Assembly: GCA_036679645.1 (NCBI GenBank) | Contig: JAZDCY010000015.1 | Location: 1-64,000, forward strand | DNA: 64,000 bases | Direction of reading: 5' to 3' | DNA from: Gemmatimonadota bacterium | Lineage (GTDB): Bacteria > Gemmatimonadota > Gemmatimonadetes > Gemmatimonadales > GWC2-71-9 | Shown: positions 11,381 through 29,101 of the stretch, piece by piece | How the letters are laid out: each line of letters starts with the position of its first letter | How positions within the stretch are numbered: position 1 is the first letter of the stretch | Notes under the pieces: model-generated | The model's database searches: none | Told to the model about the DNA's origin: nothing | What the model saw: only the letters and a program-made list of their open reading frames with translations | Position numbers and translations under genes: made by a program

Positions 11381-11464
11381 TCAGAACCGCGTGGAGCAGT
11401 AGTCGCAGATGGCGTTAACTGTGAATGGCGAGTTGAGAGGTCCCTGCCTGATTCGCTCGATCAG
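11381..11464 (-). pseudogene. Probable C-terminal remnant of the toxin partner of the Panacea antitoxin
   Basis: Start-less frame LIERIRQGPLNSPFTVNAICDYCSTRF* begins at the antitoxin stop. It resembles, from memory, the C-termini of small ORFs found downstream of DUF4065 genes. Confidence 0.4.
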
Positions 11465-12012
11465 GCAAGCAGATCGTCAGCCGATGCCTCTGCGTGCAGT
11501 GCCTCTTCGATCTCCTTCACGTCCTCTGTGGACATCCCCTCGCCAAACAGGATGTCGCGAATCTCAATCGGCAAGTGCGATCCCTCTGGGTCCCGCCACT
11601 CAGGAAGCTGGTGCGAGTAATCCCGAAGGTCCCACTGGGACATGTGACCGAATTTCTCGAATATCTCACGAAGTAGATCTTCTTCGGCAGGCGACAATTG
11701 ATCGTTGGGGACTTCGTCGGTCGCCAGACTGATTTCGTGGCCCATGCGCTCCGAGATGATCTGGTGCCAGTAGGACGGCCCGCTCGGGTCTGGTTCCTCG
11801 TTGATCTTGTCAAGCGTAAAACTCAACACGGGTCCGTGCGGGAGGGAGAAGTACCAGTCGAAGGTGATCGGGCGGCCCCAGCGGATGAGCGCCTCGCGGT
11901 CGGCAAGGTAAAGGAGCTTGATGAGCTTCATGTGGCTCATCCGGCTGCCCGCTAGCTGCAGGAGGCGAGCCGCTGCTTGCGTCGTCTTGTCCTCGCGGTA
12001 TGTCAACGGCAT
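11461..12012 (-). CDS. Panacea-domain (DUF4065 / SocA-like) antitoxin
   Basis: MKLIKLLYLADREAL..WGRPITFD.YFSLPHGPV and LRDYSH.LPEW are the DUF4065 signature. Confidence 0.88.
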   Translation of the reverse strand: MPLTYREDKTTQAAARLLQLAGSRMSHMKLIKLLYLADREALIRWGRPITFDWYFSLPHGPVLSFTLDKINEEPDPSGPSYWHQIISERMGHEISLATDEVPNDQLSPAEEDLLREIFEKFGHMSQWDLRDYSHQLPEWRDPEGSHLPIEIRDILFGEGMSTEDVKEIEEALHAEASADDLLA

Positions 12013-12333
12013 CTCGATCAATGTTCAGCCGGCATCCGTGCCAGTCAAGCGCATTCCTACGCATTCATCAAGTACGTTCTTGTACCCCGCGGACGCGAGT
12101 CGTTGCCCTTCCACCAAACATCGGGTGCACCGCCGGAATTCCCAAGGTGGTGCAGCGGCCGCTCCTGGGTCTACGCTAGCCACCGCTATAGAGCCTGAAC
12201 CATGTGAGGGCGCCACCTATGCGCGCCGTCGCGACCGGCCTGACCGCCGTCAGACGTTGCCGGGGGTGCGGGAGGGGATCGAGGAGCGCAGTCTACCGCT
12301 GTACGCCAGAGCAATTCTGTGGCTCAGTCTAGG

Positions 12334-14391
12334 TCACTCCTCCAACGCCTTGAACACTGCGTCCGGCGCATCCTTGTAGAACTCGATCTTGACCCGCGTC
12401 CAAATATCGTCGTCCAAGTCATTCAGCTGGCGTCGCGCACTCACAGGCATCAGGAGCGTTTGAGCCTGCTTGTCCACCGCGAGCTCGGCAATCGCTACCG
12501 CGTGCGGCAACATCTCTACGGAGCCGCCAAGGTTGAGCTGACCGACGATGATCGTCGCCCCCCGAGTATTCCGCTCGAGAAGGGAACCGGCGAAGGCCAC
12601 CAGGATCGGCAGCCCCAGCCCCTGGCCCGACTTGTCCGCATCCATGGGCCGCATCTGGAGGGAGAACTCGTGCTCGCGGGGATTCCGGTCACCCACCAGC
12701 TCTTTCGCCCGGGCGTACAGATTCTGCTCTCCGACCTTGACGCTCTCGCGGAAGGGCGGTGGCGTCGGTTGGTTGAGGATCTTCACCCCACCGCCGGGCC
12801 CACTCGTGACCTCTATGCGATATAGGCCCGCCCCGGTCTCAGGTGACCCGGGGCTCACTGCCCAGACCTGTCCGGGCGGCAGCGGGTCCGCGTCGATAGC
12901 CTCGTCGCTGTGCAATTCTGGCGTGGCTACGAACAGTTCCGGCCCGTCGGGAGCCATGATGTAACTGAAATGGGTGTTGCGGAACTCTGCCTTGAAACAC
13001 CGTTTCTGCTGCTCCTTCACTCGTCGCCGGGACTCGAGGGCTAAGCGGACGATCCATTCCAGGTCCTCATCGGAAACCGGCATTTCAGGATCGGGAAAGA
13101 GCAGCTTGGTCAGACCACTGACCGTCTTGTTGACAGCTTCGATGTCGCGGCCGCTGAGCGCGCCGCCCAAGTGCACGCGCTCCTGCATGACCGAGACGCG
13201 GTTGCCAGTTCGAAGGCGATTCCAGCACTCACTGAGAAAGTCACTGACCAGGCCGAAGTGATCGGTGAAGTGATCGCTCGGAGTCAGCTTCGGGAAGTCC
13301 CATCCGGGAGCGAACGAGTGCAAGCGATCCATGAACGCCGTGTCGTCACGCATCTCCTTGGGGAGTGGGCTCAAGAGGTGACCGATCCTCTGCTGCTGTT
13401 CGACGTCCACATCGAAGTTGCCCAGCATGACCATGCAGCCGTCGGCTCGGATATTCTCCTTGCCGCGACTGAACTGGCCAGACGCCATGTATCCCTTCAT
13501 GATGCTGACGCCGTCCTTCTGGTCGAAGGAGATGCCCGATACCTCGTCGAAGGCTACGACGTCGTACTGGCACACGAGGCCACGCTGGCCTGTAGCGTTG
13601 TTGACGAACATTTTCGCTACGGTAGCCGTGCCGCCGGAAAGGAGATGGGCATACGGCGAGATCTGTTGAAAGAGGTGACTCTTGCCCGTCCCGCGGGGCC
13701 CCAGCTCCACGAAATTGTAGTTGCGCTCAACAAAGGGGACCATGCGGAGCAGGGCAACGCGCCTTGCTCGTTCATCCAGGCCGCCAGGCTCGAGGCCGAT
13801 GGAGCGAAGCAAGAGTTCGGACCACTCTTGTGTCGTGAACGTGCTGCGGCCCTTGTTGAGAATGTCGAGCACATCCGGCTTGGACATCTGAATGGGCCGA
13901 AGCGAGTCGATGGCGAACGGTCGGCCGCCCGTCTGCTGCGCGATGATGCCGTCATATGAGAGCGTAACCTCGGCATAGAAGCCGCCGGTGAGCATGCGCT
14001 CATTATCCCGCACGAGCTGGTCGTCGATCCGAACGTCCCGAAGGGTGAGACTCGGCAGCTCGGCGACATGACAGTCATTCTTGGCGTCGAGCTTGGCCTT
14101 GATGATGTCGATGAGGCGGATGGAGCCGCGCTCCCGGGCCCGCGCCTTGAATAACTCCTCCTCTCCAGTCCGAACGGTGCGGTCCTTGAGCTGCTGCTCG
14201 ACGATCTCCAGCCCTTCGGCAATCTCCTTCTCGTCGATGCTGGCGCAGTAGCGGCCGAGCAAGAACTCCACGACGTAGGTCGGGACCGGATACTGCCTGG
14301 AGTACTTGCGGACGAGGTCCTTTCGAACCAGGTATCCGTCGAACGCCTTTGCAGCCAGCTCGTCCAGCTGATCGATCGTCAGGGTCGTCAT
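12334..14391 (-). CDS. brxL: BREX Lon-related AAA+ protein BrxL
   Basis: GYLVRKDL, VPTYVVEFLLGRYC, Walker A GPRGTGKS, VAFDEV, AFMDRLH and a C-terminal Lon-like domain. Last gene of the brx operon. Confidence 0.92.
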   Translation of the reverse strand: MTTLTIDQLDELAAKAFDGYLVRKDLVRKYSRQYPVPTYVVEFLLGRYCASIDEKEIAEGLEIVEQQLKDRTVRTGEEELFKARARERGSIRLIDIIKAKLDAKNDCHVAELPSLTLRDVRIDDQLVRDNERMLTGGFYAEVTLSYDGIIAQQTGGRPFAIDSLRPIQMSKPDVLDILNKGRSTFTTQEWSELLLRSIGLEPGGLDERARRVALLRMVPFVERNYNFVELGPRGTGKSHLFQQISPYAHLLSGGTATVAKMFVNNATGQRGLVCQYDVVAFDEVSGISFDQKDGVSIMKGYMASGQFSRGKENIRADGCMVMLGNFDVDVEQQQRIGHLLSPLPKEMRDDTAFMDRLHSFAPGWDFPKLTPSDHFTDHFGLVSDFLSECWNRLRTGNRVSVMQERVHLGGALSGRDIEAVNKTVSGLTKLLFPDPEMPVSDEDLEWIVRLALESRRRVKEQQKRCFKAEFRNTHFSYIMAPDGPELFVATPELHSDEAIDADPLPPGQVWAVSPGSPETGAGLYRIEVTSGPGGGVKILNQPTPPPFRESVKVGEQNLYARAKELVGDRNPREHEFSLQMRPMDADKSGQGLGLPILVAFAGSLLERNTRGATIIVGQLNLGGSVEMLPHAVAIAELAVDKQAQTLLMPVSARRQLNDLDDDIWTRVKIEFYKDAPDAVFKALEE

Positions 14392-16727
14392 CCTTCTCCC
14401 ACCGTGGTGCTGGCTCGGTCGAGTACGTTACCGGCCTGATCCAAGACTACGACCGTCACAGCCTGTCCCTCATGTTCGTCGCTCACCGGAAATCTTATTT
14501 CTCCATCGTCGTCGACGGGTTTCGGGTTCGCGACTACCGAGGTCTCGGCTTTCTTCCAGTTCCGCCTGATGTCCACCGCTGACTCGGTACCGGCAGACGT
14601 CACGGTGATCACGCATCGCAGGCGCCGCCACTCCACTTTCTCGATCCGCGCTGCCACGGCCACCGTGCCGCGCTCAACGTCCAGCACGGGTACGATGCAC
14701 TCCTGTGGACTCACGCCGCCATGGGCGTATTCCTTATTGCTGTAGACGCCGATACCTGGCGGGCAGGCGATGCGGGCGTGAGGATTCCAGTACCAACCGT
14801 AGGTCGTCACGTCCGGTGTGGCGCCTTCCTTGATCGTGGCGCAACGAGCCCAGCGGCTCTCGACGAGGTACTTGGGCAGATCGATCTTCGGCAGGCCGCC
14901 CGGTAGCAGGAGCCAGCCGTGATCGGTGACCACGCGCACTCGGCTCCACCCAGCCTCGATGAGCTGGACCACGCGGTTGGCGATGCGCTCTACCTCACGA
15001 TCGACGTGCAGCGCGAGGCCGGCTCCGAGTTTGTGGCCCATCTCGTCGAGCCGCCCCGTCTCCGTCCACCCGTGGGTGTCGGCATCGGTGGGCATGCGGA
15101 CCTCGTCGCCGTCCATCACCTCCACGCCGCGTTGCTGCATCTCGTCGCGGAGCTTCTTGGACGTGGCCGATTGACCGGTGTCAGTGAAGACCGGCGAGAA
15201 GTCCGCCGGCGTTCCGACTCCCTTCAATCCATCGTGAACGAAAGTGGCGAGCGGCTTCGCCGTGGCGGTCACCGTGGGAATGGGCACGATCCGATGCGTG
15301 AGACGCACCTGGAAAGCCATTGCCTCGAGCTTCGCCTGCACTAGCGCGCCCACGTCGAACCGCAGTCCGTCCGCGAACACCGTGCAGGTGTCGGGGTGAG
15401 GGCTTTCCCCTATCGCGTCATCGCGCAGGTCTGAGCCACTTTGTGCGACGAGCTGTTGGAAGTGCCGAGCCGAGGCGTCGAGCCAAGGCTCGTAGATCGC
15501 GCGCACGACACAATTGATCACGGCGCCTTCCGCCGGCCCCGGAGCGCTGGCGACCGCCCGGAGAGCGGCCTGGTCGCATCGCCAGCCGTCTGTCGCGTAG
15601 GCCGCGGCGACTCGCTCGACCGTGTCACCACCCAGCGTGGTCTTGGCAGACTGTGCGAGCGAGGCGAGATGTTCCAGTGCGCGAGCATAGGGACTCTCAG
15701 CCAACTCCGCCCACACCCAACCGCGCCGCTCACCGTGTTCTCCCTCGAGGCGCAGCACCCGCTCACAGGCCTCCCGATGCGGCAGCGTGTCGATCTCTTC
15801 CAGCGAAGCCTTCAATCGCTCTTCGGCTTCCTCGTTGAGCAGCGGTTGCTTCGCGGCGTCGATGAGCAGGTTGCCCTGGCCGGCCGTGGGTTCCCGCAGG
15901 AGCCGGCTGACGCCCCGGTAACGCAACGGCGCCTCCGCAAACCTGAGCCACACGCTCTTCCACGTCCCCTCGCCTTCCAGGAGGTGCTGCGCAGCCTCCA
16001 TGTGCCCGTCGTCCTCCGGGTCGATTCCGAAGTCCGACGAGATCAGGTTACGGAACGCGCCCCACTCCGATTCGGAGTGCCCAGCGCGGAACGTGTCCGG
16101 GTCGTGCATCCACAGGAGCAAATCGCGGTGCACATCCGGCACGGCCAGCTTATCGAAGTCGTCGGCGGTGAGGCGAATACCGTGGAGCGCTTCCAGCGGC
16201 GTATCCGCCAGCAGTGCCAGGTTGCGAAGCGCTGCCTCCCGGGTGCGTGTGTCACGGGCCATGTCAAGGCTGAGCCCGTCGTCGGACATCAGGAACGCCT
16301 CCACCGTCCAATCCCGGCCGTTTCTCTGATGCCAGACTGCGCCCCGGTACTGCAGCTCGACCAGCGGCTGCAATTGGGGCGGGCAATCGCCACCGGCCCG
16401 CAGCTCCTGTCGGCTCACCTTGGGGAGATAGAGCACGGGGATGCTGCCAGGCGGCGGAGCGTCGGTGAGTGTCCGATCGACGATGCAGCGGAGCCAGATC
16501 GCCGGGCCCGTCCGCTGTTCCGGATCGTATAGACCGTAGGTGAAGAACTCGGCCATCTCGTCGCGGAGCCGGCGGGCGAGTTCCAGCCACTGCCCGTCCG
16601 CGTCCGTCCACAAGAGGACCACCGGTTCCGCTACGCCATCCGGCGAAGCGAGTGTCGTCTTGAACGACGCCCTCAATGCTTCGATGAGTGTCTCATGGGC
16701 CGCGGTCGTACGCGTCATCACGTTCAT
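14388..16727 (-). CDS. pglZ: BREX PglZ (alkaline-phosphatase superfamily, type B-like)
   Basis: FADGLRFD, PTVTATAK, VTDHGW and YAHGGVSPQEC; lies between pglX and brxL. Confidence 0.92.
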   Translation of the reverse strand: MNVMTRTTAAHETLIEALRASFKTTLASPDGVAEPVVLLWTDADGQWLELARRLRDEMAEFFTYGLYDPEQRTGPAIWLRCIVDRTLTDAPPPGSIPVLYLPKVSRQELRAGGDCPPQLQPLVELQYRGAVWHQRNGRDWTVEAFLMSDDGLSLDMARDTRTREAALRNLALLADTPLEALHGIRLTADDFDKLAVPDVHRDLLLWMHDPDTFRAGHSESEWGAFRNLISSDFGIDPEDDGHMEAAQHLLEGEGTWKSVWLRFAEAPLRYRGVSRLLREPTAGQGNLLIDAAKQPLLNEEAEERLKASLEEIDTLPHREACERVLRLEGEHGERRGWVWAELAESPYARALEHLASLAQSAKTTLGGDTVERVAAAYATDGWRCDQAALRAVASAPGPAEGAVINCVVRAIYEPWLDASARHFQQLVAQSGSDLRDDAIGESPHPDTCTVFADGLRFDVGALVQAKLEAMAFQVRLTHRIVPIPTVTATAKPLATFVHDGLKGVGTPADFSPVFTDTGQSATSKKLRDEMQQRGVEVMDGDEVRMPTDADTHGWTETGRLDEMGHKLGAGLALHVDREVERIANRVVQLIEAGWSRVRVVTDHGWLLLPGGLPKIDLPKYLVESRWARCATIKEGATPDVTTYGWYWNPHARIACPPGIGVYSNKEYAHGGVSPQECIVPVLDVERGTVAVAARIEKVEWRRLRCVITVTSAGTESAVDIRRNWKKAETSVVANPKPVDDDGEIRFPVSDEHEGQAVTVVVLDQAGNVLDRASTTVGEG

Positions 16728-19700
16728 CGGTTCAACTCGGCATGTCGCTTACGCGCAGCCTCTTTGACCGCGGAGGTGTAGTGCATGTCGTTCCAACGAT
16801 TCCCGTCGAACTCCGGGCCGCCTTTGAAGTTCTCCGTCTTCTCATCCCAATCCCAGAACCACGGGAAGTCTTCCTTGGGCCGTAGGCTCTGCGGTTCCTT
16901 ACCCCTGTCCTTCTTCCATTTGATGTTTGGCTTCCACCGCAAGATCCCCGCGCCTTTCTTGCCGCCTTTCCGCAACGTGCCGCTCATGAAAGGTCGGATA
17001 TTGATGCGAACGCCGTCGTTGATGTCCGGCTCCCAACCCATCGGTTGTTCGTGAAGCGGCTTCCAGCGAACGAAGATGTCGTAGGGTGGCTCGCCGGCCA
17101 GGATCTTCTCGAGCTGTTCCTTGAGGTCCAGCGCCGCGGCGAGACGTGCGTCAGAGCCCTCCGTCCCCTTCTGCTGCTCTGCCCTCTGCCGGTCGATCCA
17201 GTCGCCCAGATACGTGTAGGTAATTGCTTGCAGCGTGCGGTGGCCTTCGCCGTCGGGGCCGGTGAGCTTGTGGGTGTTCACCAGGCAGTGGAAGCCTTTC
17301 CCGTTGCCATCCCAGATGTGCCACACGAAGGGACGGTGTTGGAAGAGCTTGCAGTGCTCCTCGAAGAACTTGTCGCGCAGCCAAGTGTCGAGGGAGTCCG
17401 CGGGTCTATTACCGTCGCCGGCGACGGCGAGGAGTTCTCGTTCCTTGGCGGCGGACCAGTCGGGCCCGAAGGCGGCAGAGAGGAGTTCCCGGACACGATC
17501 GGCGGCCGAGCGTTCACCGCGCGCGGCGGAGAGGCACACGATGCCGTCTTCGTCGGCGTACTCCTTCAGTTCATCGCAGCGCGCCACCCAGTCGCGGGCC
17601 TCCTTCGCCAGGCGCATCTCTGGGTCCAGCTCCGGTGGCCACCGGTAGCCCAACAGGCGACCAACGGCGACTTGGAGCAGTGTAGCCGGCTCTGCCTTGG
17701 CCGGGTGGCTGTGGAAGAGCCATTGGGTGGGGTCGTCGGACTGGGGTTCGGGGAGGCCGTTGGGGTACTTCTCGCCTGCGACCCCTTGCCAGTGAGCAAG
17801 GTCGAAAGGGACTTTCACCAGAGTGGCTGTTGCGACATTGAGCTTGGTGTTGATCTGCCGAATTGCGCTGTTGTAGTTGTCAGCCTCACAGAACGCCCAT
17901 ATCGCGGGCAAGTTGGTTGGGTTCAATGGGACTATCGCCCCCGTTATCTTGTCGTGAATCTCACCAGTATAGATACTGCACTTCAGCTGGCTCATCTGGC
18001 CAACTATTACCCCGTCTTGCCCCCACGCGGAGTGACCCTGAATCCGCGCGCGGTCAGAATGAGCAAGTTCGCCATTTCCATCTTCCCAAAGAAGAACTGA
18101 CTCACGCCCTCGATGGCGTGTTGTATATGGTGGGGGCCCTTGGAACCAAACCCACGGCGTGCCAACCAATCGGATTTCCCAAAACCCACGAACATATCGG
18201 TCGCTGTCGCCTGTCGAGAGTCCTTCAGTGACCGTCGCGTACTCACCGAGCAGTTCACCGCGGGTTAGCGTTGAGGTGAGTACAACTGCATCTGGATTAC
18301 CCAATTGCTGTGCTTGGGATAGCACTTGCACTGTCCCATCCGACTGTCCCGTTTCCGGGCCGGCAACTGGTTGGCCTCTGAGGAGAGTGGCCTTGTGCGC
18401 AGGTGTTGATCCATGCATCGCATCAACACCAGCCATCTCGGCGACTTCCCTTGGCTTCGAGCCCGAGATTGCAACTAAGGCGACATTGACGACTTCTCCA
18501 CCTATAGTCTCGAAAGCGCCTGACCCTAGTCGCGCCACAAGATTCCACGTCCGCCGCTTGAGCAGCTTCTCTCGCAGCTTCCTGTAACTGGTCAGGAAGA
18601 GCCAGTTCTGCGGGGTGACCGCGGCCGCGGTGCCAGTGCCACCGAGCCACCGCAACATCCGCTCGACAAAGAGCGTGGCGAGATCTGCCTTAGCCTCCTT
18701 GTAGTGCTCGTCGGCGAAGTCCTTGAGCAGATCGCTCTGCTGGCCACGGCCGAGATACGGCACATTCGTAATCACCAGCGTGTACTCGCCCGACAACAGC
18801 TCCGCCGCCCGCGCCATGCCCTGCGCCGCCACCGTACGCTCTGTGTCTTCGACGTCCTCCGACTCTCGCGCCAGGGTCTGCGCCAGCAGCGGCTGCAGCT
18901 CAGCGAAGTCCGCAATCAGCAAGTCGCCCTTGAGCGCCTTTGGATCAATCAGCGACCCCAGCTCCGGCGCCTGCTCGAAGAGGTCGTGGAGCTGGGCCAT
19001 ACCCGCGCGGAGGCGTTCGTTCTCACCGGCGAGCTTCGTCCATTCCTTTTTGCTCGAGCCCACCGCCAGACCAGAGCAAGCGATGTGGAGCGGCGGCAGC
19101 TCGATTGGCTTGCCAGCCAACTTCCAGGCTGCCATTGCGAGGTTGAAGGCCGCGATCTGCGTGCAGCGTAGGTCGAGCTCCAGACCGTGAAGGTTGTCGG
19201 TCAGGACGCGGCGGATGGCGTCTTCGAGATTCATTCCCTCCTCATGCGTCCGCAGCCGCACTAGCAGTTCGAAGCCCTCGACGAGGAAGTGGCCGCTGCC
19301 ACAGCAGGGGTCGAGAACCTTCAACTCCTTCGCGGTCTTCGGCCAGCCCTCATAGGTGCCGGCGGCGGGACACCAGGAGCCGGTGGGCGTGTCCTCTTCG
19401 TCGCCTTCCTGGGGTTCGCGCACGAAGCGCAAGTAATCGAAGTCGTAGCCACCTTGAGAGCGGAGCCGGACTGCTTGGCGCAGCTCCTCTTCGCTCTCAG
19501 CGGTCTCGGCGAGGCTCGGGTTCTCTGCGAGCACCTTGCCCGCGTGCCAGGCGCCGATGGTGTTGTGGTAGAGGAAGAGCACCATGTAGTGCTCGGTGAA
19601 GAGCTGGGTGACGGCCGGCAACTCGTCCGCGCCGATCTTCACCCCCGAGGCGTTCACCTCATCTTTCTTGTCCGCCTGCCAGTATTGGTAGGTCCAGCCG

Positions 19701-20255: not shown

Positions 20256-23200
20256 TCAACTCAACAGTACCGGCCCCTTCTTCAGGGCTTTCCGGATGTT
20301 CGCAGCCTGGCCTTCCAGCCATTCATTCAGTTCGTCCTCTGACCTAATGGTTGATCGGTCGATGTGAACCGTCTGGATCTCCGGCTCCAGTTTTCGGGCC
20401 GCCTCGACCAGGGCTTGCTGCACCCGGTTCGGCACGGCCGCGGCCTCGGCCCGTCGAGCCGAGAGTGGTTGACGATCGAGGCACTCGATCAGGGCGTCGT
20501 CAGATGACAGGTCCTCCTCCGGAGGAGCCTTGAAACGCACCTGGTCGAGTATCTCTTGGCGCACTGCCGGTTCCAGTTTCTTCCAGGTCTCGCTCTCGTC
20601 GAGCTGTCGCGCCCCCGCTTCGTGTGCCGAGGCCCAAGCCTCGTTGGCGGCGTTGAGCGCGGACCGGAGCGTGCCGGCAAGTGATGCGCGGATCGCGTTG
20701 GCCGGATCGCCAGGATCGAGGAGCATCCGGCCGGTGCGTACCGCCTCGACTTCTCTCGAGGCATCGGCGGCTTCCGGCAGGTCGGCCGCGAAGTGCGCCA
20801 GGCGTTCGACCGATCGCCATAACGGCAGTCGGCTCTCAGCGAGCGCGCTGGTTTCCTTCCAATCGGAAATCCACTTCTCGATCTGGGCCGCACGGTCCTT
20901 GATGGCAGCGAGTTGCTGGTTGCCAGCCATGCCCTTCAGGTCCTCGATGGGCGTGACCGAAGGCGGCTTGGGTAACGGCGGCTCACCCCCGGCCGCGCGG
21001 GCGAGCTGCAGGAGTTTCTCGAGAAACTCGGGCGCGCGGCTGGATTCCTCACCGGTCTTGCAGCTGACACCGAGTTGGCCGAACGGTCGAGCTGACCGAG
21101 TGGAACCGCAACACCGTTGAGTGTCGCCGTGAGATGCTGCGATCGGTGGAGAGCCAACAGGGCCGCATCGATCGCATCCTGCGGCCATCCGAAAGGCGCT
21201 GCCCGTAATTCCTTTCGAACGGCTGTTCCCGTTGCACCACTGCCGATCGTTCGTATCACTTCACGGGAAACAGGATGATCCTCGGTGCTTCCCGTATGAC
21301 CAATCGGCTGGAACGGCTGATCCGCGCCGTCCCGTGCGCGCTTGATGGCCGACCTCCACGCACTCGAACTGGCGTCCGCGTCGCCAAACCGCGGGTAGAG
21401 TCTCGCCAAGGATGCCTCGGCCGCTTCCCGAATCTTGTCGGCCAGCTCGAGTTGGAGGACCTCAGATCCACCACCCTGGAAGACCTTGGCGTTGCCGACC
21501 ACCTGCTTGACGAGGTCATCCCGCCGCCTCTGTGCCATGGCCTTGCGTCCCTCCAGGCTCTGACGGGCCAGCTGCCCCTCAGCGGTCGTCGGATGCCCAC
21601 GTTGGTTCAGGGTGTCTTCTGCGGCTTCGGTCTCGACAATCGCCGCCTTCAGGTCTTCGGCTGCCTGCCTCGGAACGAATACGTAGATGATGGGATCGTC
21701 CGAACCAGCCTTTCGGGCGGCCTCCACCATTTCCTTCTCGGGCGCCGACCATCCGTCCCGAATCCAGACAGGAATCCCGTCGCTCGGCAGGGCCGGTGGT
21801 GTCTGGTCCCGGTGGATGATCAGTTGCCGGGGATCCTTTGCTTGGCCGTGGAGCAACTTGACGGCGCCGATGATCCGGCCCGCCTCCGCATACAGGAGTC
21901 GATCCCGCTCGGCCTGCACCGTCACGTCGTCGTTGGCGAGCTTCGCCTGCAGGTTTCGAAAGGCCTTGTCCAGCGCCTCGCCCTCGCGGGTCTGGAGGCG
22001 GTACTCCTCGCCGAGCTGCATCAATACGCCCTTCTTGGCCAGCCGCTCGAGCGTCGTCTCCACGTCGTCGCGCAGCTTCCCGTTGTCGGCTCGCAGATCT
22101 TCCACCAGGAGGTCCGCCAGGTGTTCCTTGATGGCGCGGACACCGATGTCGGCGCCCGTCTGTCGTGGCAACTGTCCGATGAGGAAGACGAGACTGCAGA
22201 TTCGGTACGCCAGCTCTCCGTCGGGCGTGCCGTCCTTCACGCTGATGATCCGCTCGTTGATTTCGCGAAGTAGGACGCCGGTGTTTACCATCTCAGGTGC
22301 CAGCGCATCGTAGAGTTCGTCGGCGGGCACCACGGCTCCCAAAGGCTCATCGGCCACCTTGGCGACCGCGTCGTGAATGATCCGGAGCTGCGAGCGGAGC
22401 TGGCTGCTGGTGCCCGCGAGGTCAACAGTGCGGAAGCAGTGTTCCCAAAAACGCCGCCGCACGGGAAGAAGCGGATAGTCCTCGACGATAGTGCCACGAT
22501 CGTCGCCGGTCTCACCGATTTTCGTGCCCTGCAGTTGCCGGGAAACCTCGCCGGCATGGTCCTCGAGCACTTTTCGCACGTCGGCAACGGTGCTGGCTTT
22601 TTTCTGCAGCAACACCTTTCGCGTGACGACTTCCACATCTGTGTCGGAGAGCGTGACGCGAATCGTAAAGCGATCCAGCATCTTGTGAAGCAGGCGCATG
22701 TCGGAAAGCGCGCTCTGTCCGGCGCCCACGACGATGAGGTGGTTGTCGAGTTGTTTCGACAGTGCCTCCGTCACCTCGGTCACGAGCGCAGAGCGATCCA
22801 CCGAGTCTCCGATGTACTGCTGCACTTCGTCGAGGACTAGAATGGTGCAGGGCAAGCGCCCATCGTTTCCACGGAGCTGCATGACCCGCTTGGCCATGTT
22901 CAGGAACTCGCTCGTGGATATGTCGGTCTTCGGCTGGTCGAACTGCGCCCGGATTGTCTTACGGGCCTCCGCCTCGTTCGTGCCGAAGTTGGGGTCACAG
23001 GACAGCACCGCCCGGGCGAGGAGGCCGCTGACGTAGAGGTTGTTCAGCTCCACTTCCCACACCTTGCCGGCTGCCTCCACCGTCTTTCGGACCTGGTTGA
23101 GATAGCCCTCGTCGTGGAGCCACAGGCAGAACTTGGCCTGGGCGTACTGCTCGGGGAGTCCCGCGCCGCGAAGAAGCACGCTCAGCACCGTTTGTCTGAC

Positions 23201-23638
23201 ATTGTCGGTGCTACCGCTCAGGAGTGAGCCTGCCGCCGCCAGGAGTGACCCGGCTCGCTTTCCGGCGGTGTCCAGTTCACGGAGGAGAGCGATGATGTCG
23301 GCTGGAACGTGCGGGACGAGACTCCGCGCGGTGGACCCATCCTCGAAACTCGTATCGACCCACAGGTGACACAGCATCTTGAGCAGATGGGACTTGCCGC
23401 TCCCGAAGAACCCGCTTACCCACGCCGCCTTTTGGCTCGTGTGATTGAGATTCGTGAGGAACGACTGGAGAATCCGCTGGATCCCCTCCGCGTACTCACC
23501 CTCGCAGACGAACGTGGCCAGTTCGCCCTGCAACTCCTTGATCTCACGCTCCGTGGTTCGGTCCGCGATGCGGGCCTGTCCCTGATTGACCAGTGGATGG
23601 GTGGACGGATCTCGCTGAAGTGTGTCTTTGATCTTCAT
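20256..23638 (-). pseudogene. brxC: BREX P-loop ATPase BrxC, frameshifted at ~21085
   Basis: Walker A SGFFGSGKS, Walker B LVLDE, YPLLP and PFGWPQDAID. The frame switches after LGQLD. The C-terminal part (FGQLGVSCKTGEE...KKGPVLLS) is in another frame ending at 20256. Confidence 0.88.
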
Positions 23639-24198
23639 CGGGCTTCTCCCGAACCGTGCGCGGTGATGGGCACCGCCATGTAGTTCCAACCGTCGCGGGC
23701 GTCAAGCAGTCGATAGTTGTTGTGCTCGTACTGGCCCGGAAAGAAGACGACTAGGCGTCCCTTGATGTCGCGCTCAACGAGGCGCAGCACCTTCGAGAAG
23801 CGAGTCAATCCGAAAAGCGATCCAACGCCGAAGACGGCCACGACGGAGTTTTCCGTCGCGTCGGGGTTGGTGAGCGTCTCGCTGAGGTGTTCAGCCACTG
23901 CTTCCGCGAACTCCGCCTCCAGCTTCAGATCCAGGTCATCGGGTGTCTCGAAGTACGCGTCGCGGTACTCATCGTCCGCCATCCACCGCGCGAAGAAGCC
24001 CGTCAAGTCGACCTCGAACCACTCGTGCAAGCCCTTCTGCGTCTCCAATTCGAACAACTGCTTCCGGGCTCGAAGCGTGCGCTCGAGTTCCTTGTCGTAG
24101 ACGACCATAACGACCCGCTGGGCGCCGGCCACCGTCCGTTGCCACGGAGTGGCGATGTGCCGGCCGAACCGTTCCGCGACGTCTTCGATGCGTCCCAT
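23635..24198 (-). CDS. brxB: BREX protein BrxB (DUF1788)
   Basis: 187 aa with GRLVVFFPGQY..NNYRLLDARDGWNY. ATGA overlap with brxC. Confidence 0.85.
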   Translation of the reverse strand: MGRIEDVAERFGRHIATPWQRTVAGAQRVVMVVYDKELERTLRARKQLFELETQKGLHEWFEVDLTGFFARWMADDEYRDAYFETPDDLDLKLEAEFAEAVAEHLSETLTNPDATENSVVAVFGVGSLFGLTRFSKVLRLVERDIKGRLVVFFPGQYEHNNYRLLDARDGWNYMAVPITAHGSGEAR

Positions 24199-24200
24199 GC

Positions 24201-25010
24201 TCAGAATCCCTCAGACCACGGGTCTAATGGCTCGAACCCGATCTCCAGGACGTTTGACAACTCCCGGATGTCCAGCAGCCCCAGACGCTTAGCGTCGTTA
24301 GCCAAATCTCGGGCCCTACGGAAGTCTAGGTCCAACACCTGCACCCACCCTGATGTGAAGAGGGCGGTGCCTCGAAAACCCACCCGATGTGCCAGATAGA
24401 GTGCGAATGCCAATGCACCGGGACTCGGAGTGACCAGTCGGCGGACCTTGAACGTGCGGCCCTCAAGATGACCGGCCTGAGTCCAAGAACTTGCGGCGTT
24501 GCGCACGACCTTGTCGAGGATCGAGTCGTTTAGCCGATCGCGAACGGACTCCCGCAGGGCGTCTCGCATCCGGAGGCGCGAGAACTCCTCGCCGGCCCCC
24601 AGGGGAACGATGGCTTGAGCCGTCCCGGCCAGCAGTGGATCCCGAGCCAGGGCCGCCAGGAGCGCGAGCAGAGGCCGGCCCTCACTGTCGAGCGACCAGA
24701 GACGCCGAAGTACTCGGAAGATGGGGATGTTTGGATCCAGGCCGTATAGCTCCCCAAGCCGCTGATTGGTCAGCTTACGAGTGGCTCCGGTAGTCTTCCC
24801 CAGCAGGTTCTCGTCGACTATGGCACGGGTGTAATCCGCCCGTTTGGCCTCAGCTGGCGTCGAGGCCAGCAGGGCATCCAGCTCGGCCAGCATCATCGTG
24901 CGGCTGGTGTGCGTTCCTTTGTCTCCAAACCTGAATCCGGCCTGCTCGGCCACCTTTCCTGTTTGGCCCGTCTGGGGTAGGAATCCGGCAAAACCTGTCA
25001 CCACAGCCAC
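24201..25010 (-). CDS. brxA: BrxA-like first gene of the BREX operon
   Basis: Immediately upstream of brxB. Helical protein (GTHTSRTMML, ENLLGKTT..TR, RNAASSWTQAGHL). Family assignment is mainly by synteny and the start is uncertain. Confidence 0.6.
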   Translation of the reverse strand: MAVVTGFAGFLPQTGQTGKVAEQAGFRFGDKGTHTSRTMMLAELDALLASTPAEAKRADYTRAIVDENLLGKTTGATRKLTNQRLGELYGLDPNIPIFRVLRRLWSLDSEGRPLLALLAALARDPLLAGTAQAIVPLGAGEEFSRLRMRDALRESVRDRLNDSILDKVVRNAASSWTQAGHLEGRTFKVRRLVTPSPGALAFALYLAHRVGFRGTALFTSGWVQVLDLDFRRARDLANDAKRLGLLDIRELSNVLEIGFEPLDPWSEGF

Positions 25011-25067
25011 TTATAGATCCTCACTATTTGGGTTACAGCTGTTCTATCAGTAGGGGACAACATACTC

Positions 25068-25153
25068 GCCGGCAAACTTGCCGGCAAGTTCCTTGACACG
25101 TCTCGGCCATGCGTTAAATTGGTACGTGGTAGTTGGCCGGCAAACTTGCCGGC
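25068..25153. promoter_or_regulatory. Tandem palindromic operators flanking a sigma70-like promoter between brxA and rmuC
   Basis: GCCGGCAAACTTGCCGGC occurs at 25068-25085 and 25136-25153. Perfect palindrome AACTTGCCGGCAAGTT at 25075-25090. TTGACA at 25093 and TAAATT at 25115. Confidence 0.7.
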
Positions 25154-25197
25154 GCAGCGTGAGCGGTCCTTCGACATACGGCACCACGGAGTTGGCC

Positions 25198-26643
25198 ATG
25201 GAAACGGTAACTGTAGTAGTCAGCTTGCTTGGCGCCCTGCTCAGTGGCGGCGTGATCGGATGGTTCTTGGGGCGGGCGCAGGTAGCCCCGGTGCAGTCTC
25301 GCTTAGACGATCGTGACCGCGAGCTCCAGCGAGTTCGGGGCGAGGCCGCCGAGGCCGCGCGGAACCACGGTACCGAATCAGCCGGTCTTCGAGATCAGTT
25401 GCTCTTGGCGAACGGGGAACGGGAACGGCTGGACGCGGAGCTTGCGGCCGAGCGGCGTGCGACGACCGAGAAGCTCGCGGTGCTCGAGAACGCGCAGCAG
25501 CAACTTCGTGAATCGTTCGACGTGGCGTGTCATCAAGCCTTGCAGGCGAACAACCATGCGTTTCTGGATTTGGCGCAGACGAAGCTCGGCGAATTCAATC
25601 AGCTCGCGAAAGCCGACCTCGATGCGCGGCGGAAGTCGATTGACGAACTGGTGGCGCCCGTTCGCGACGGGCTCGACGCAGTGGGAGAGACGCTTCAGAA
25701 GCTCGACGTGGATCGCGCGGCGAGCGCGGCCCAGATCGAGGAGTCGCTGAAGCAGGTCTCCGAGCACAGCCGGGAACTGGCGGGAGAGACGAAGGTCCTT
25801 GTACGGGCCCTGCGACAGCCTACTTCGCGTGGTCGGTGGGGCGAGATGCAGCTTCGCCGCGTTGTCGAGCTCGCCGGCATGCAGGAGCACTGCGACTTCA
25901 CCGAGCAGCAGACCATCGCGACGGAAGATGGACGCCTTCGTCCCGATCTCCTTGTGCACCTGCCTCAGCAGAAGCTCGTGGTGGTGGACTCCAAGGTGCC
26001 GCTCGACGCATACCTCCAGGCGATGGAGGCGGTGGATGACGCGGTCCGGGACGAGGCGCTCGATCGCCACGTCGTGCAGGTGCGAGCCCATGTTGACACG
26101 CTGGCCAGCAAAGAGTACGCGACGCAGTTCGCGGAGACCCCGAACTTCGTGGTGATGTTCCTGCCCGGCGAGAGCATCTTCAGCGCTGCATGCGCGCGCG
26201 ATCCTTCGTTGATCGAGTACGCGATCGGGAAGAGTGTCATGCCCGCCAGCCCGACCACGCTCATCACGCTGCTGAAGGCGGTGGCCTACGGCTGGCAGCA
26301 GGAGCGGCTCGCCGCGAACACGGAGCAACTACGCGACCTCGGTCGATGCCTCTATGACCGCGTAAGGTTGCTGGCAGAGCATCTCGCCGACATCCGCGCA
26401 GGTCTCGAGAAGGCGGTCGAGGCGTACAACAAGACAGTGGGCTCCCTCGAGAAGCGTTTCTTGCCGGTGGCGCGAAAGCTCAAGGATCTCGGCGTTGGAG
26501 CTGACGGTGAGATTGAGGTTCTGGAGACCGTGACCGTTACCGCGAGCCTCCCGGCCGCTTCGGAGCTTGCCCCGGAGCAACCTCTCGATGGGGATGCTTC
26601 ACCGCGACGGTGGGGAGCGCGAGAGCGAAAACTGCCCACCTGA
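25198..26643 (+). CDS. rmuC: DNA recombination protein RmuC
   Basis: N-terminal TM helix and coiled coil. Motifs RGRWGEMQL, RPDLLVHLP, VVDSKVPL, FVVMFLPGE, SPTTLITLLKAV. Confidence 0.92.
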   Translation: METVTVVVSLLGALLSGGVIGWFLGRAQVAPVQSRLDDRDRELQRVRGEAAEAARNHGTESAGLRDQLLLANGERERLDAELAAERRATTEKLAVLENAQQQLRESFDVACHQALQANNHAFLDLAQTKLGEFNQLAKADLDARRKSIDELVAPVRDGLDAVGETLQKLDVDRAASAAQIEESLKQVSEHSRELAGETKVLVRALRQPTSRGRWGEMQLRRVVELAGMQEHCDFTEQQTIATEDGRLRPDLLVHLPQQKLVVVDSKVPLDAYLQAMEAVDDAVRDEALDRHVVQVRAHVDTLASKEYATQFAETPNFVVMFLPGESIFSAACARDPSLIEYAIGKSVMPASPTTLITLLKAVAYGWQQERLAANTEQLRDLGRCLYDRVRLLAEHLADIRAGLEKAVEAYNKTVGSLEKRFLPVARKLKDLGVGADGEIEVLETVTVTASLPAASELAPEQPLDGDASPRRWGARERKLPT

Positions 26644-26714
26644 CTCTTAGTGCCTGGATCACACACTTCGGCCCGACGGTTGTGACATAATGACCTTGCG
26701 TTATCTTCCATCCC

Positions 26715-27569
26715 ATGGAAGCAAACACAAGTTCAGTATCTCACCGAGGTGGGCTGTCGGCTACGAACCGGGTCAAACTGACCCGACTGCACCGAGAACT
26801 GCGGCACCCCTTCGGGGTGAGCGACGCGGCACCCGTGCTCGCGCTGAACGCAGTACGCGCGGGTCGTTTCCTCGCCTATCTCGCGTCGCGCGGGTGGCTC
26901 ACTAGAGTACGGCGCGGGCTGTACACCACGGTTCCGTTGGACGCGTCGGAGCCCTCCGATTGGCGCGTTGATCCGTGGGTCGTTGCTTCTCGTGCGTTCG
27001 AACCGTGCTACATCGGTGGGTGGAGCGCCGCGGAACACTGGGGACTGACCGATCAGCTGTTTCGTGTTGTGGTTGTCTTCACCGCGAAGTGGACCCGGAA
27101 TCGCAGGCCGACGATCCAGGAGATCTCATACCGCGTCAAGGTCGTCGAACTCCATCGTATCTTCGGCACGAAAAAGGTGTGGCGCGGCAACGTCCCGGTA
27201 CTGGTAGCCGATCCCTCCAGGACTATCGTTGACGTTCTGGATGACCCGCGTCTCGGCGGGGGACTACGTCATGTGGCAGAGATGCTGTCGGAGTATTTCT
27301 CCGGGGAGCACCGGTCCGAAGCTACGCTTCTCGAGTACGCCGCGCTGGTCGGCAATCGCTCGGTCTACAAGCGTCTGGGCTACCTCATTGAAGTGGTCGG
27401 TCTCGATGCCGCGGAACTCGTTGACGCCTGCCGTACACGAATGAGCTCAGGCGTTGTCCTGCTCGATCCGGGGTCACCGCGCCGCGGGAAGATCGTCACG
27501 CGCTGGCGAGTCCGGGTGAATGTCAGACTTCTGGGCGACTTGACCGGCGAGAAAGACTATAGTATATAG
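26715..27569 (+). CDS. Type IV TA AbiEi-family antitoxin / transcriptional regulator
   Basis: wHTH ending GWLTRVRRGLY, then YIGGWSAAEHWGLTDQ, DPSRTIVDVL and KRLGYL. Confidence 0.85.
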   Translation: MEANTSSVSHRGGLSATNRVKLTRLHRELRHPFGVSDAAPVLALNAVRAGRFLAYLASRGWLTRVRRGLYTTVPLDASEPSDWRVDPWVVASRAFEPCYIGGWSAAEHWGLTDQLFRVVVVFTAKWTRNRRPTIQEISYRVKVVELHRIFGTKKVWRGNVPVLVADPSRTIVDVLDDPRLGGGLRHVAEMLSEYFSGEHRSEATLLEYAALVGNRSVYKRLGYLIEVVGLDAAELVDACRTRMSSGVVLLDPGSPRRGKIVTRWRVRVNVRLLGDLTGEKDYSI

Positions 27570-27594
27570 TCTATAAGACTATGTAATATAGCTT
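27554..27594. promoter_or_regulatory. Two AT-rich inverted-repeat operators 22 bp apart
   Basis: AGACTATA-GTA-TATAGTCT (27554-27572, perfect) and AGACTATG-TAA-TATAGCTT (27576-27594). TTGACC at 27540. Confidence 0.7.
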
Positions 27595-27612
27595 TGTTCT
27601 GACATAACCTCT

Positions 27613-28191
27613 ATGAAGCTCACCGGACCAGCCGCAATCGTGTCGGCTCTATCCGCCGTAGGCGAGCGACTTGCTCACGCGAACGAACCCTGCGCCATCG
27701 TCGTGCTGGGCGGTGCCGCGATGAACCTCCTGGGGATCGTGGACCGCCCGACCATTGACGTTGACGTGCTCGCGCGGGCCGACTCTACCGGTTCCATCAG
27801 CCCGCCGGACCCGCTGCCGGGCGCGCTGCAGCGGGCGATAGCCGCGGTGGCCCGCGACCAGGGCCTGCTGCAGCACTGGATGAATACGACGGTCGCCGAC
27901 CAGTGGCGATTCGGCTTGCCCCCGGGCCTCGCGGACCGAATCGAATGGCGGTCATACGGAGCGTTGCGGGTCGGTATCGTTGGGCGGCGCGACCTCGTTT
28001 GTTTCAAGCTTTACGCATCGGCCGACCAGACGGGGCCCGACAACGTGCACGTCCGCGACCTCGTCGCCCTCGAGCCGACCGACGAGGAGCTCGAGCGGGC
28101 TGCCGAGTGGGTCCGCGAGCAGGATTCCTCCGCTCAGTTCCATGAAGTCGTCGGCAAGGTGGTGGCCTATGTCCAAGACGCGCTTCGCTAG
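27613..28191 (+). CDS. DUF6036-type nucleotidyltransferase (putative type IV/VII TA component)
   Basis: VVLGGAAM....RPTIDVDV (Pol-beta NTase G[GS]...DxD), HWMN, KLYA and H..DL..L. Confidence 0.8.
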   Translation: MKLTGPAAIVSALSAVGERLAHANEPCAIVVLGGAAMNLLGIVDRPTIDVDVLARADSTGSISPPDPLPGALQRAIAAVARDQGLLQHWMNTTVADQWRFGLPPGLADRIEWRSYGALRVGIVGRRDLVCFKLYASADQTGPDNVHVRDLVALEPTDEELERAAEWVREQDSSAQFHEVVGKVVAYVQDALR

Positions 28192-29101
28192 CATTGCGCG
28201 AGCGCTCGGCGACGCTGCGGCCGCCGCGGCCTGGATCCAGTGGCAGGCGCTGGGCGGCCAGGCTGCGGCGCCCCGCTCGCCATCGGCGATCGTGGATCCG
28301 GAAGCGCTCGTTTTGTTCTCCCTCTGGCTCGCGGACGACGAGCCGCGCTTGCGCGACTTTCTCGCGGGGTTCGCGAAGTTGGGATCGCGTCTCCTCAGCG
28401 TTCAGCGGCTGAAGCGCGTCATGCGTCTCTACCCGGCTGACGCTGATGTGCGCGTTGCCGACTTCGCTGCTCGGATCGAAAGCTCCGGTAAAGACCCCAG
28501 GTGGCGAAAACTGGCGGGACAAGCTCCCAGCGGTTCGAGCCGGCCCGGTAAGGTGGCGCCTGCCTCATTGAGGATGGGCGAACCGGGCTCTCTCATGCTG
28601 CGACTGCGGACGGCGTTCGGCATCGATGTCCGCACCGATACGCTCACCTATCTCATCGGACGCCGGGAAGTGTGGACCGACGTGAAGGAGATTTCCGAGG
28701 CGCTCCACTACGCGAAATACTCCGTGCGCCTCGCCTGTGAGGCGTTGGCCGATGCCCGGCTGATCGAGTCCCGCGCGGACCGGCCAGTCAGGTACTACGC
28801 CAATCAGACACGGTGGTCCACATTGCTCGACCTTGCGGACACACCCCCGTGGCATCCCTGGGCTACTGTCTTTGCCTTCGTGCTGCGTCTTCAAGAATGG
28901 CTCCGCCAACCACGCATCGACACGGCCTCTGCCACACTCGCGGCATCGCTCGCACGCGAGTTCATGCTCGAGCACGGGAAGGTTCTGACAGACGTTCAGC
29001 TCGACATGCCCGACGACCGGGATCACCTCGGCGAGGCATATCTACCCGCGTTTGAGCACACGGTGATGGCGCTTGCGCAGTGGCTGCGGGAGAACGTGTA
29101 G
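28169..29101 (+). CDS. Hypothetical HTH-containing partner of the DUF6036 NTase
   Basis: Overlaps the NTase stop. [18 protein letters not shown] and [14 protein letters not shown] precede a wHTH-like segment ([22 protein letters not shown]). Confidence 0.7.

Follow-up and report, generated by a model that had tools for sequence, protein, structure and literature searches.

A conserved palindrome in front of brxA, duplicated around a divergent rmuC promoter, as a candidate BrxA operator in a Gemmatimonadota BREX island

Results

A complete BREX operon in an island of accreted genes

The window analysed here, a 64,000-nt stretch of a Gemmatimonadota contig, contains a defence island flanked by a tricorn protease gene and a VPS10/BNR protein gene. 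Profile searches (Pfam, PADLOC, NCBIfam) confirmed the gene order and identities proposed in the first-pass annotation, with a Panacea antitoxin gene and brxL-pglZ-pglX-brxC-brxB-brxA on the minus strand and rmuC, abiEi, a DUF6036 gene and an HTH gene running divergently. Type 1 BREX systems methylate a non-palindromic 6-bp site and exclude phage. Within the island, six genes make up a type 1 BREX from the PglZ type B branch and form one operon in the canonical order brxA-brxB-brxC-pglX-pglZ-brxL: brxL (12334..14391; PF13337, PF20442, PDLC02506, TIGR02688), pglZ type B (14388..16727; NF033450, 836 bits against a cut-off of 400), the adenine methyltransferase gene pglX (16724..20242; PDLC02528, 1556 bits; its product contains the motifs DPCCGSG and NVPY), the ATPase gene brxC (20256..23638; NF033441, 634 bits over the N-terminal part, and PDLC02489 over both parts), brxB (23635..24198; PF08747 E 1e-8, PDLC02469) and a long form of brxA (24201..25010; PDLC02450 E 2e-96), whose product is our candidate operator-binding protein. 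For PglX, BrxC, BrxB and BrxA, the best PADLOC models reach E-values of 1e-70 or lower. Motifs of the Walker, methyltransferase and phosphatase types can be read in the translations, and the operon carries no inserted regulator. The phrase 'PglZ type B' was not found in the BREX literature searched.

Five of the BREX reading frames are intact and brxC alone is broken in the assembly, by a frameshift at 21084/21085 that the first-pass annotation had overlooked. The sole contig across the break in sequencing run X1 (depth 93.9), probably from the same sample as the assembly, has 79 extra bases that restore the frame and match an 81-nt gap in the Shinella homologue. The frameshift is probably an assembly error, and in view of these bases a programmed frameshift or a dead brxC was rejected. 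Runs X2 and X3 yielded only short pieces from other organisms.

As had been noted before, the island has no recognisable mobility features: a scan of 20 ORFs detected no integrase, the window contains no tRNA, and the 20 largest repeat families, out of at least 60, include no direct repeat flanking the island. The GC content is flat across the island, staying at 60-67% with a genome value of 64.2%, and thus gives no compositional sign of an island. Comparison with relatives, suggested as a way to find an empty site between tricorn and vps10, revealed no clean one. In a genome from the same genus (G001), the conserved block runs up to vps10, but tricorn is missing from it and found on a different contig; since G001 and a second relative (G002) both lack tricorn at this place, there is no exact empty site. 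The island thus shows none of the integrase, att/tRNA and clean empty site that mark an integrative genomic island, and BREX with several toxin-antitoxin-like genes, as first described, is ordinary accretion.

Two orphan antitoxins and a putative toxin-antitoxin pair

The genes around BREX and rmuC are later accretions: Panacea and AbiEi are antitoxins left without partners, and the DUF6036 and HTH genes form a putative toxin-antitoxin pair that stands on its own. The SocA-like Panacea antitoxin (11461..12012, minus strand; PF13274 E 1.1e-22) is followed by the last ~28 codons of another gene (11382..11465, minus strand; tblastx to locus L286, 55% over 22 aa). In two other loci (L289, L290) the gene after Panacea is an intact ORF of 129 aa, and a run contig across 11000-12283 does not differ from the assembly; judged by these homologues, the fragment is the remnant of a ~129-aa gene that probably encoded the lost toxin partner of Panacea. 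The abiEi antitoxin gene (26715..27569, plus strand; PDLC02271 E 6e-81) runs at its 3' end into the promoter of the DUF6036 gene and is not followed by abiEii; an abiEi paralogue on another contig overlaps an intact abiEii. The gene after abiEi encodes a 192-aa DUF6036 protein with no PADLOC AbiEii match, where an AbiE system would be expected to have an AbiEii nucleotidyltransferase of ~300 aa. As orphan antitoxins, AbiEi and Panacea cannot act as abortive effectors. The lack of intact partners for both had escaped the first reading.

DUF6036 itself is a minimal nucleotidyltransferase (27613..28191, plus strand; PF19502 E 8e-5, PF08843 E 0.006), its PF19502 match of 23 bits falling just below the 23.6 cut-off. 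The start of its partner, a 310-aa protein with a central winged helix (wHTH; 28169..29101, plus strand), overlaps the DUF6036 stop. Upstream of the pair lies an AT-rich palindromic stretch (27538..27612, plus strand), assigned by sequence likeness as a promoter/operator; a similar sequence precedes DUF6036 in genome G194, and AT-rich palindromes do so in most other loci. The wHTH protein has 172 homologues, and DUF6036 is encoded directly upstream in 24 of 30 loci, while abiEi, rmuC and brxA were all absent from within 1.5 kb of the pair in the 29 other loci. An overlapping, conserved gene pair with its own palindromic operator is the arrangement of a two-gene nucleotidyltransferase toxin-antitoxin system, and we regard DUF6036-wHTH as a putative free-standing pair of this type with its own promoter. 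The wHTH protein is modelled at pLDDT 93.4 with weak MarR-type matches only (by sequence, MarR_2 at E 0.03); Foldseek gave no clear fold match, and the Atlas clusters matched are all unnamed. Sequence searches found no relative of DUF6036 with a solved structure, and DUF6036 was not found in the literature searched.

A conserved palindrome in front of brxA

The region between brxA and rmuC contains an 18-bp palindrome, GCCGGCAA-AC-TTGCCGGC, as a brxA-proximal candidate operator (25068..25085) and an identical copy 68 nt further on in the rmuC leader (25136..25153). A candidate rmuC promoter (TTGACA-16-TAAATT; 25093..25120, plus strand), matching the consensus at 10/12 positions and the sole promoter-like site between 24700 and 29400 in the promoter scan, starts 7 nt from the first palindrome and is flanked by both. 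Towards brxA, a weak candidate promoter below the scan threshold can be read from the sequence (TTGTCC-17-TGTAAC; 25032..25060, minus strand), likewise 7 nt from the proximal palindrome. The twin palindromes had gone unnoticed in the first-pass annotation.

In order to assess conservation, the motif was defined on the window plus 29 genome loci and then applied to new data. Among 83 metagenome and viral loci, taken from the best 80 of 572 by similarity to the query and hence over-representing one clade, 73 carry the palindrome at most 500 nt upstream of the brxA anchor, against a background at the same stringency of 22 sites in 4.05 Mb. Five of the remaining ten have it 1.9-2.2 kb upstream, ahead of an inserted co-directional gene, and the last five have at most 1.3 kb of upstream sequence. 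The palindrome occurs in 54 of 76 BrxA clusters formed at 80% identity, including those of Shinella and an Azospirillum plasmid. A strict pattern found 15 sites in 10 of 401 genomes of the phylum, with none for the reversed control: ten (in eight genomes) lie at brxA, one marks a BREX scar where a remnant of brxL is left, and four fall inside ORFs. Viral contigs gave 36 motif matches, two of them at brxA, the rest looking like chance hits mostly within ORFs. The palindrome is therefore conserved in front of brxA across the PglZ type B branch. An upstream search in operator-less BrxA clades gave no common palindrome, with shorter AT-rich ones in two loci (L045, L046). No description of such an operator upstream of brxA was found in the literature searched, mostly non-subscription papers.

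The position of the palindrome relative to promoter elements is equally regular. A -35-like box pointing towards brxA lies 4-8 or 14-18 nt away in 43 of 86 loci (2.5 in shuffled sequence), and 44 such boxes are in phase compared to seven out of phase, in windows picked after a first look at the box spacings. Where two copies are present, 36 loci space them by 56-86 nt, mostly 64-71. Among two-copy loci, 9 of 37 have a box pointing away from brxA (0.95 after shuffling), several of the nine being close relatives; among one-copy loci, 2 of 48 do (1.3 after shuffling). All three loci with a divergent rmuC belong to these nine; the divergent slot of the others holds CBASS-like, SIR2-HerA, helicase-nuclease or SDH-protease genes.

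BrxA as the candidate binder

BREX regulation is known mainly through BrxR, and many loci have no BrxR. A WYL domain (PF13280) was not found in the source genome, which is 92.7% complete. BrxA is our candidate binder. Its model (pLDDT 92.9) contains two HTH motifs and a C-terminal winged helix, matching the BrxA structure 7ZGE best (Foldseek E 9e-4, VIA Z 14.8, rmsd 2.9 over 184) and the BpuJI recognition domain weakly (Z 5.3). Four residues, T38, R84, E87 and R170, which lie within the two predicted recognition helices or next to them, show no deviation in 51 canonical-operator representatives and deviate in 5, 5, 5 and 8, respectively, of eight nested operator-less BrxAs (placed by a quick tree method); this loss may be drift, as the operator-less proteins are kin and more diverged overall (0.44 vs 0.31). 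Of all columns, position 80 covaries most strongly with variant operators, changing in five of six lineages versus 6 of 51 (p 6e-4, or about 0.15 after correction for 242 columns), and one locus (L043) has G80 despite a canonical operator. As T53 of 7ZGE aligns with T77, R56 of 7ZGE maps to position 80, in an alignment that is weak (E 0.59) and was lengthened by three residues without gaps. The homodimer prediction scored 0.00 and speaks neither for nor against. BrxA of E. fergusonii is a monomer reported only to shift lambda DNA (PMC9240713), and the accessible part of a 2026 paper calls BrxA specificity unknown (PMC13326643). Judging from these sequence patterns, BrxA is the most likely binder, with about even odds that it recognises the palindrome and controls BREX together with RmuC. 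AbiEi and the wHTH protein were rejected as binders because operator-bearing loci lack both.

A possible but doubtful alternative is that the palindrome is a real operator bound by another BREX protein or complex (a BrxC dimer, BrxA-BrxC or BrxL), in which case co-regulation of rmuC would stand. Because the motif goes with the entire operon, it singles out no one gene, and BrxC is an equally placed candidate: in the portion of PMC13326643 available, BrxA modulates BrxC, a dimer with wHTH domains that binds dsDNA in the presence of ATP. Against this, the operator-tracking residues fall in the predicted recognition helices of BrxA, the protein that the test covered.

rmuC in the divergent slot

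The rmuC gene (25198..26643, plus strand; PF02646 E 4e-96) encodes an N-terminal hydrophobic helix, a coiled coil and an RmuC domain of PD-(D/E)XK type with conserved GE-QL, PD and DSK residues; the hydrophobic N-terminus is kept in 16 homologues, as judged by eye. The rmuC-palindromes-brxA layout recurs in a genome of another family in the same order (G303) and in a metagenome locus (L171). It is rare: rmuC is at brxA in 1 of 58 metagenome or viral loci with at least 1 kb of upstream sequence (again from the best 80 of 572), in none of the 29 genome loci, and in one of the best 29 RmuC loci of the phylum. RmuC relatives were not found in the viral contigs searched, and rmuC beside BREX was not described in the literature searched, mostly non-subscription papers. 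The best PADLOC match of RmuC, RTasRmuC, is also matched by an RmuC in a non-defence context. Coiled-coil genes inserted between operator and brxA in other loci are not called RmuC-like, since profile comparison with RmuC was not significant (probability 0.5 for the family of L229, L208, L212 and L222; 2.7 for DUF2130).

It is rather unlikely that the operator serves BREX only and that rmuC is an ordinary patchy gene, landed once and carried along with no role in defence. RmuC homologues are indeed common, being present in 67 of 401 genomes and for the most part in ordinary, non-defence contexts, and the source genome has no other rmuC (one tblastn match). The three BREX-linked RmuCs form one clade with that of G202 (SH-aLRT 89, in a tree built without nine distant loci that tblastn missed), so a single capture would suffice. 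However, the promoter between the operators faces rmuC with the same geometry in all three loci, the two genes have stayed together although RmuC identity is down to 54-58% and BrxA identity to 59-61%, and in G070 a related RmuC lies in an RM-rich island, in G142 inside a DISARM-like drmD-drmMI cluster and in G202 near an Old nuclease.

Discussion

The most far-reaching reading, at a probability of about 35%, is that BrxA of the PglZ type B branch is a sequence-specific regulator that reads the GCCGGCAA half-site with two recognition helices, and that twin operators form a bidirectional switch with a swappable slot for RmuC, CBASS-like, SIR2-HerA or helicase-nuclease modules that would fire when BREX is disturbed. 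In our best explanation, at the even odds given above, we infer that a protein binds the palindrome and that this protein is BrxA, one monomer possibly contacting each 9-bp half-site through a pair of HTH motifs resembling those of FokI and BpuJI. Binding would autoregulate BREX and, through the back-to-back promoter, also co-regulate RmuC, a predicted membrane-anchored backup nuclease. Restriction-modification controller proteins set a concentration window through operator copies; by analogy, one copy 7 nt upstream of the -35 box and another downstream of the start could give rmuC such a window. Disturbance of the BREX complex might then alter the amount of free BrxA and switch on RmuC, which may cut DNA as ShdA of Shield does.

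It is quite unlikely that a host or other trans-acting regulator binds the palindrome, or that it works by folding into a cruciform or hairpin, with BrxA uninvolved. Changes in the outer arms are symmetric (GAC/GTC, GCA/TGC, GTC/GAC), as base pairing would also give, and the incompleteness of the source assembly means that a regulator could be missing from it. Yet the same sequence is kept in genomes of the Gemmatimonadota group, Shinella and Azospirillum, the strict motif occurs in the source genome at BREX only, no WYL domain was found there, and the ~10-nt phasing to the -35 boxes suits a bound protein.

That rmuC, abiEi, DUF6036 and the HTH gene form a single co-regulated abortive layer for BREX, as first proposed, is very improbable: the four genes are co-directional with short gaps, AbiEi is of antitoxin and DUF6036 of nucleotidyltransferase type, and a complete AbiE occupies the divergent slot of one locus (L192), but abiEii is missing here, DUF6036-wHTH stands apart with its own promoter, an unrelated gene follows rmuC in G303, and L171 has no abiEi, DUF6036 or wHTH match. 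Co-regulation with BREX holds up as a suggestion for rmuC, whose promoter lies between the palindromes, and not for the rest of the arm. Likewise, the proposed search of gene neighbourhoods recovered rmuC beside BREX in G303 and L171, whereas abiEi, DUF6036, wHTH and Panacea were not found with our queries beside 29 other genome brxA loci or in 19 brxL-downstream regions; the 83 metagenome and viral loci (best 80 of 572) hold one rmuC and one distant complete AbiE.

If BrxA is indeed the binder, the palindrome would be its first specific DNA target and would wire backup defences to BREX independently of BrxR. The conserved 18-bp site and its natural variants make BrxA specificity and BREX regulation testable, with residues 80, 83, 84, 87, 170 and 171 as candidate contacts. 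Should the divergent slot be under the same operator, the motif would flag co-regulated backup effectors, including unnamed ones.

Among known systems, AbiE (type IV) and Panacea toxin-antitoxin modules are represented here by intact antitoxin domains, their cognate toxins being absent or a remnant. That BREX recruits backup nucleases is a general idea already published (PMC12839542), and PD-(D/E)XK nucleases, the SIR2/CBASS-type neighbours in our loci and MNT-type modules fit the pattern; the words 'RmuC', 'AbiE', 'operator' and 'promoter' do not appear in the main text of that paper, which describes no common cis-element. The same source predicts a tripartite BrxA subset. ShdA, an RmuC-domain protein, is a membrane-bound defence nuclease (PMC10270631, as far as accessible), and ShdA of Shield and DISARM-associated ShdA share with the predicted nuclease here an N-terminal membrane helix, an RmuC domain (PF02646) and a place beside a methylation-based defence system. 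In the accessible part of that paper ShdA is reported only from Pseudomonas and BREX appears only as background and in references; the likeness drawn here is one of domain layout and gene neighbourhood. BrxR/WYL control (PMC9122601) similarly involves inverted-repeat boxes beside the BREX promoter, including one that precedes brxA, but the BrxR box has two 11-bp arms and a 5-bp spacer, compared to two 8-bp arms and a 2-bp spacer here, and needs an upstream WYL regulator gene, which the island lacks. With type 1 BREX the locus shares six genes in canonical order and a BrxA fold matching 7ZGE and 3BHW; it differs in a longer BrxA with a third, winged helix domain added, and in the conserved operator-like palindrome carried by the PglZ type B branch.

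A conserved candidate operator upstream of brxA

The island represents an already known BREX subtype that has gained ordinary accretions, two of which have decayed, and its worthwhile part is likely a conserved operator, BrxA as its likely reader and a divergent slot occupied in the window by rmuC. The gap between brxA (24201-25010, minus strand) and rmuC (25198-26643, plus strand) contains an 18-bp palindrome in two identical copies spaced 68 nt apart, with a TTGACA-16-TAAATT element directed at rmuC between them. A motif built from the window together with 29 brxA loci from genomes, seven of which bear the palindrome, was then tested on new data. Among 83 further loci (the best 80 of 572 metagenome brxA loci plus three viral), the palindrome lies within 500 nt of the brxA anchor in 73 and 1.9-2.2 kb upstream, before an inserted gene, in five more; upstream sequence is too short in the remaining five, and the background amounts to 22 sites over 4.05 Mb. 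Of the 401 phylum genomes, 10 contained the strict pattern, at 15 sites in total (reversed control, 0): ten at brxA in eight genomes, one ahead of a BREX scar that retains part of brxL, and four within ORFs. The palindrome occurs in 54 of 76 BrxA clusters formed at 80% identity; a search near brxA in one distant BrxA clade and one nested subclade did not find it.

A -35-like box directed at brxA lies 4-8 or 14-18 nt from the palindrome in 43 of 86 loci versus 2.5 in shuffles, with 44 in-phase versus 7 out-of-phase positions, these phase windows having been chosen post hoc, after inspection of the box positions. The palindrome behaves like a protein-bound operator of the BREX operon and is a candidate site; the literature searched gave no description of this operator. 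Among 37 two-copy loci, 9 had a divergent in-phase -35 box (shuffle 0.95), compared with 2 of the 48 loci with one copy (shuffle 1.3). The twin copies may work as those of restriction-modification controller proteins do.

At G109:C13 965 (locus L131), operator and promoter persist before a short brxL remnant, the scar of a deleted BREX. Three viral-collection contigs (L102/L248, L105/L247 and L249), one adjoining a recombinase-like ORF, carry a PglZ-B-type brxA with the operator, which suggests a mobile route for the PglZ type B branch.

BrxA as the candidate reader

Since no WYL domain was found in the window's genome (G000), the BREX operon there contains no inserted regulator and the palindrome is conserved at loci of Shinella and Azospirillum, the pattern points to a BREX-encoded reader. 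The predicted BrxA structure (pLDDT 92.9) resembles 7ZGE (Foldseek E 9e-4; Z 14.8 and rmsd 2.9 across 184 residues) and also shows a weak similarity (Z 5.3) to the BpuJI recognition domain. PMC9240713 places the BrxA recognition helices at R56 and K147, and a weak alignment carries R56 of 7ZGE to position 80 of the window BrxA. Position 80 ranks first among the columns that track variant operators (5/6 versus 6/51; p 6e-4 uncorrected, about 0.15 corrected). T38, R84, E87 and R170 deviate in none of 51 canonical-operator representatives and in 5/8, 5/8, 5/8 and 8/8, respectively, of the nested operator-less BrxAs, a tracking weakened because the latter share kinship and higher overall divergence. 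We put the probability that BrxA binds the palindrome and co-regulates rmuC at about 0.5. The L045-L047 subclade has altered BrxA recognition helices and AT-rich repeats upstream of brxA in place of the GC-rich operator, and its BrxA has possibly switched specificity.

The divergent slot and its occupants

The rmuC-palindromes-brxA layout recurs in locus L171 and, through the pattern search, in G303, a genome of another family, where two palindromes 66 nt apart separate an rmuC (product 54% identical to the window RmuC) from brxA-brxB-brxC. In all three cases a candidate promoter between the palindromes is directed at rmuC. The other six of the nine two-copy loci with a divergent box, several of which are close relatives, encode an SDH protease, two RecB-like helicase-nucleases, two CBASS-like modules and SIR2-HerA; divergent neighbours without such a box, from a subset of 67 hand-picked ORFs, include AbiE, a short Argonaute pair, PD-T7-5, SoFic and a methyltransferase. 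The rmuC-BREX link is not strong, because rmuC adjoins brxA in 1/58 metagenome or viral loci that have 1 kb or more of upstream sequence and in 0/29 genome loci, and brxA adjoins rmuC in one of the best 29 RmuC loci from 67 genomes with a match. A single capture may suffice, since the three BREX-linked RmuCs form one clade with that of G202 (SH-aLRT 89). Relatives in G070, G142 and G202 likewise sit among defence genes; at G142:C2 (L252, 6166-13020), a DISARM-like cluster from outside Pseudomonas has rmuC flanked by drmD and a drmMI-like gene.

A coiled-coil family of ~520-590 aa (L208:4169-5941, L229:2572-4302, L212:1171-2810, L222:2808-4358, L205:197-1171), which matches nothing in Pfam or PADLOC and on visual inspection has motifs resembling PD-(D/E)XK, is encoded between operator and brxA or divergently, preceding a CBASS-type cyclase in L222, and is a candidate unnamed BREX accessory. 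DUF2130 genes (L224:5680-7260, L230:2204-3949), inserted downstream of the operator, occupy the first position in the BREX operon.

A probably intact BREX and its setting

The genes named in the first-pass annotation are present as ORFs with the expected matches in Pfam (Panacea, BrxL, BrxB, RmuC, AbiEi and, weakly, DUF6036) and PADLOC (BrxA, BrxB, BrxC, PglX, PglZ, BrxL, AbiEi), PglZ being type B (836 bits; cut-off 400). The window indeed contains no tRNA and no obvious flanking repeat, and the island shows no GC shift. Because PglZ type B exceeds the cut-off in 18/401 phylum genomes, G000 (4.05 Mb, 92.7% complete; window at C8:1-64000) counted, and in none of 165 other genomes searched from its family, BREX was probably acquired. 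The clean tricorn-VPS10 gap sought in relatives did not emerge: both same-genus genomes (G001, G002) keep the flanking block without the island and without tricorn here, giving no exact empty site. The site is plastic.

In the window, brxC is split into two overlapping ORFs at 21084/21085. A single contig of sequencing run X1 (depth 93.9) spans the break with 79 more bases and otherwise no differences; X1 is probably the source sample, so that it offers another assembly rather than an independent strain, and contigs can drop rare variants. As these bases restore the frame (2501 + 79 being a multiple of three) and fit an 81-nt gap seen in the Shinella homologue, the break is probably an assembly error and BREX intact. 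Similar false frameshifts may exist in other genes of the assembly.

A patchwork arm

Panacea relatives have a recognisable partner directly downstream in 3/5 cases, a full 129-aa ORF in L289 and L290. In the window its last ~28 codons remain (11382-11465); since the X1 contig agrees there, we take the loss to be real. The window AbiEi ends at the conserved terminus and its 3' end enters the promoter of the next module, unlike the paralogue on C18, which overlaps an intact abiEii. On either side of abiEi, at 26681-26692 and 27595-27606, lie 12-nt stretches that differ at a single position, which could be an insertion mark or chance. A second defence/TA-rich cluster (G000:C18 8000-24000; L026) holds a complete AbiE pair and Fic-, HNH- and radical-SAM-looking ORFs by eye.

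DUF6036 and the 310-aa wHTH gene (27538-29101; L256-L284) form a conserved pair that occurs widely across the phylum, preceded by AT-rich palindromic operators. A search for the wHTH protein found it in 34/401 genomes, and its named homologues are Gemmatimonadota, so the host of the window probably belongs to that phylum too. In 24 of the 30 loci fetched the gene directly upstream is DUF6036, and AT-rich palindromes precede most of the loci. In the other 29 loci, no abiEi, rmuC or brxA lies within 1.5 kb. DUF6036 was not named in the literature searched, the wHTH partner gave no clear fold match, and we regard the pair as a putative, uncharacterised toxin-antitoxin family. With these queries, the four TA and arm genes were not found beside 12 + 17 genome brxA loci and 19 brxL-downstream regions, and neighbours in the 83 metagenome/viral loci include one rmuC and one distant AbiE. 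With an orphan AbiEi, a self-standing DUF6036-wHTH pair and arm genes rarely found at other BREX loci, the arm reads as a patchwork, contrary to the proposal that it may be one co-regulated backup layer for BREX. Of the suggested co-regulation, the part concerning rmuC is favoured by its candidate promoter between BREX palindromes in three loci; the part concerning abiEi, DUF6036 and wHTH is not supported.

Comparison with known systems

The main text of PMC12839542 describes no operator, and its supplements may list RmuC; it reports that backup nucleases are common beside BREX, that a tripartite BrxA exists and that a regulatory role of BrxA is possible. According to PMC13326643, BrxA binds BrxC, BrxC is a dimer and the DNA specificity of BrxA is unknown. 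BrxR boxes, one of them upstream of brxA, appear in PMC9122601, and ShdA, a membrane-bound RmuC nuclease, occurs inside DISARM loci too, as stated in PMC10270631.
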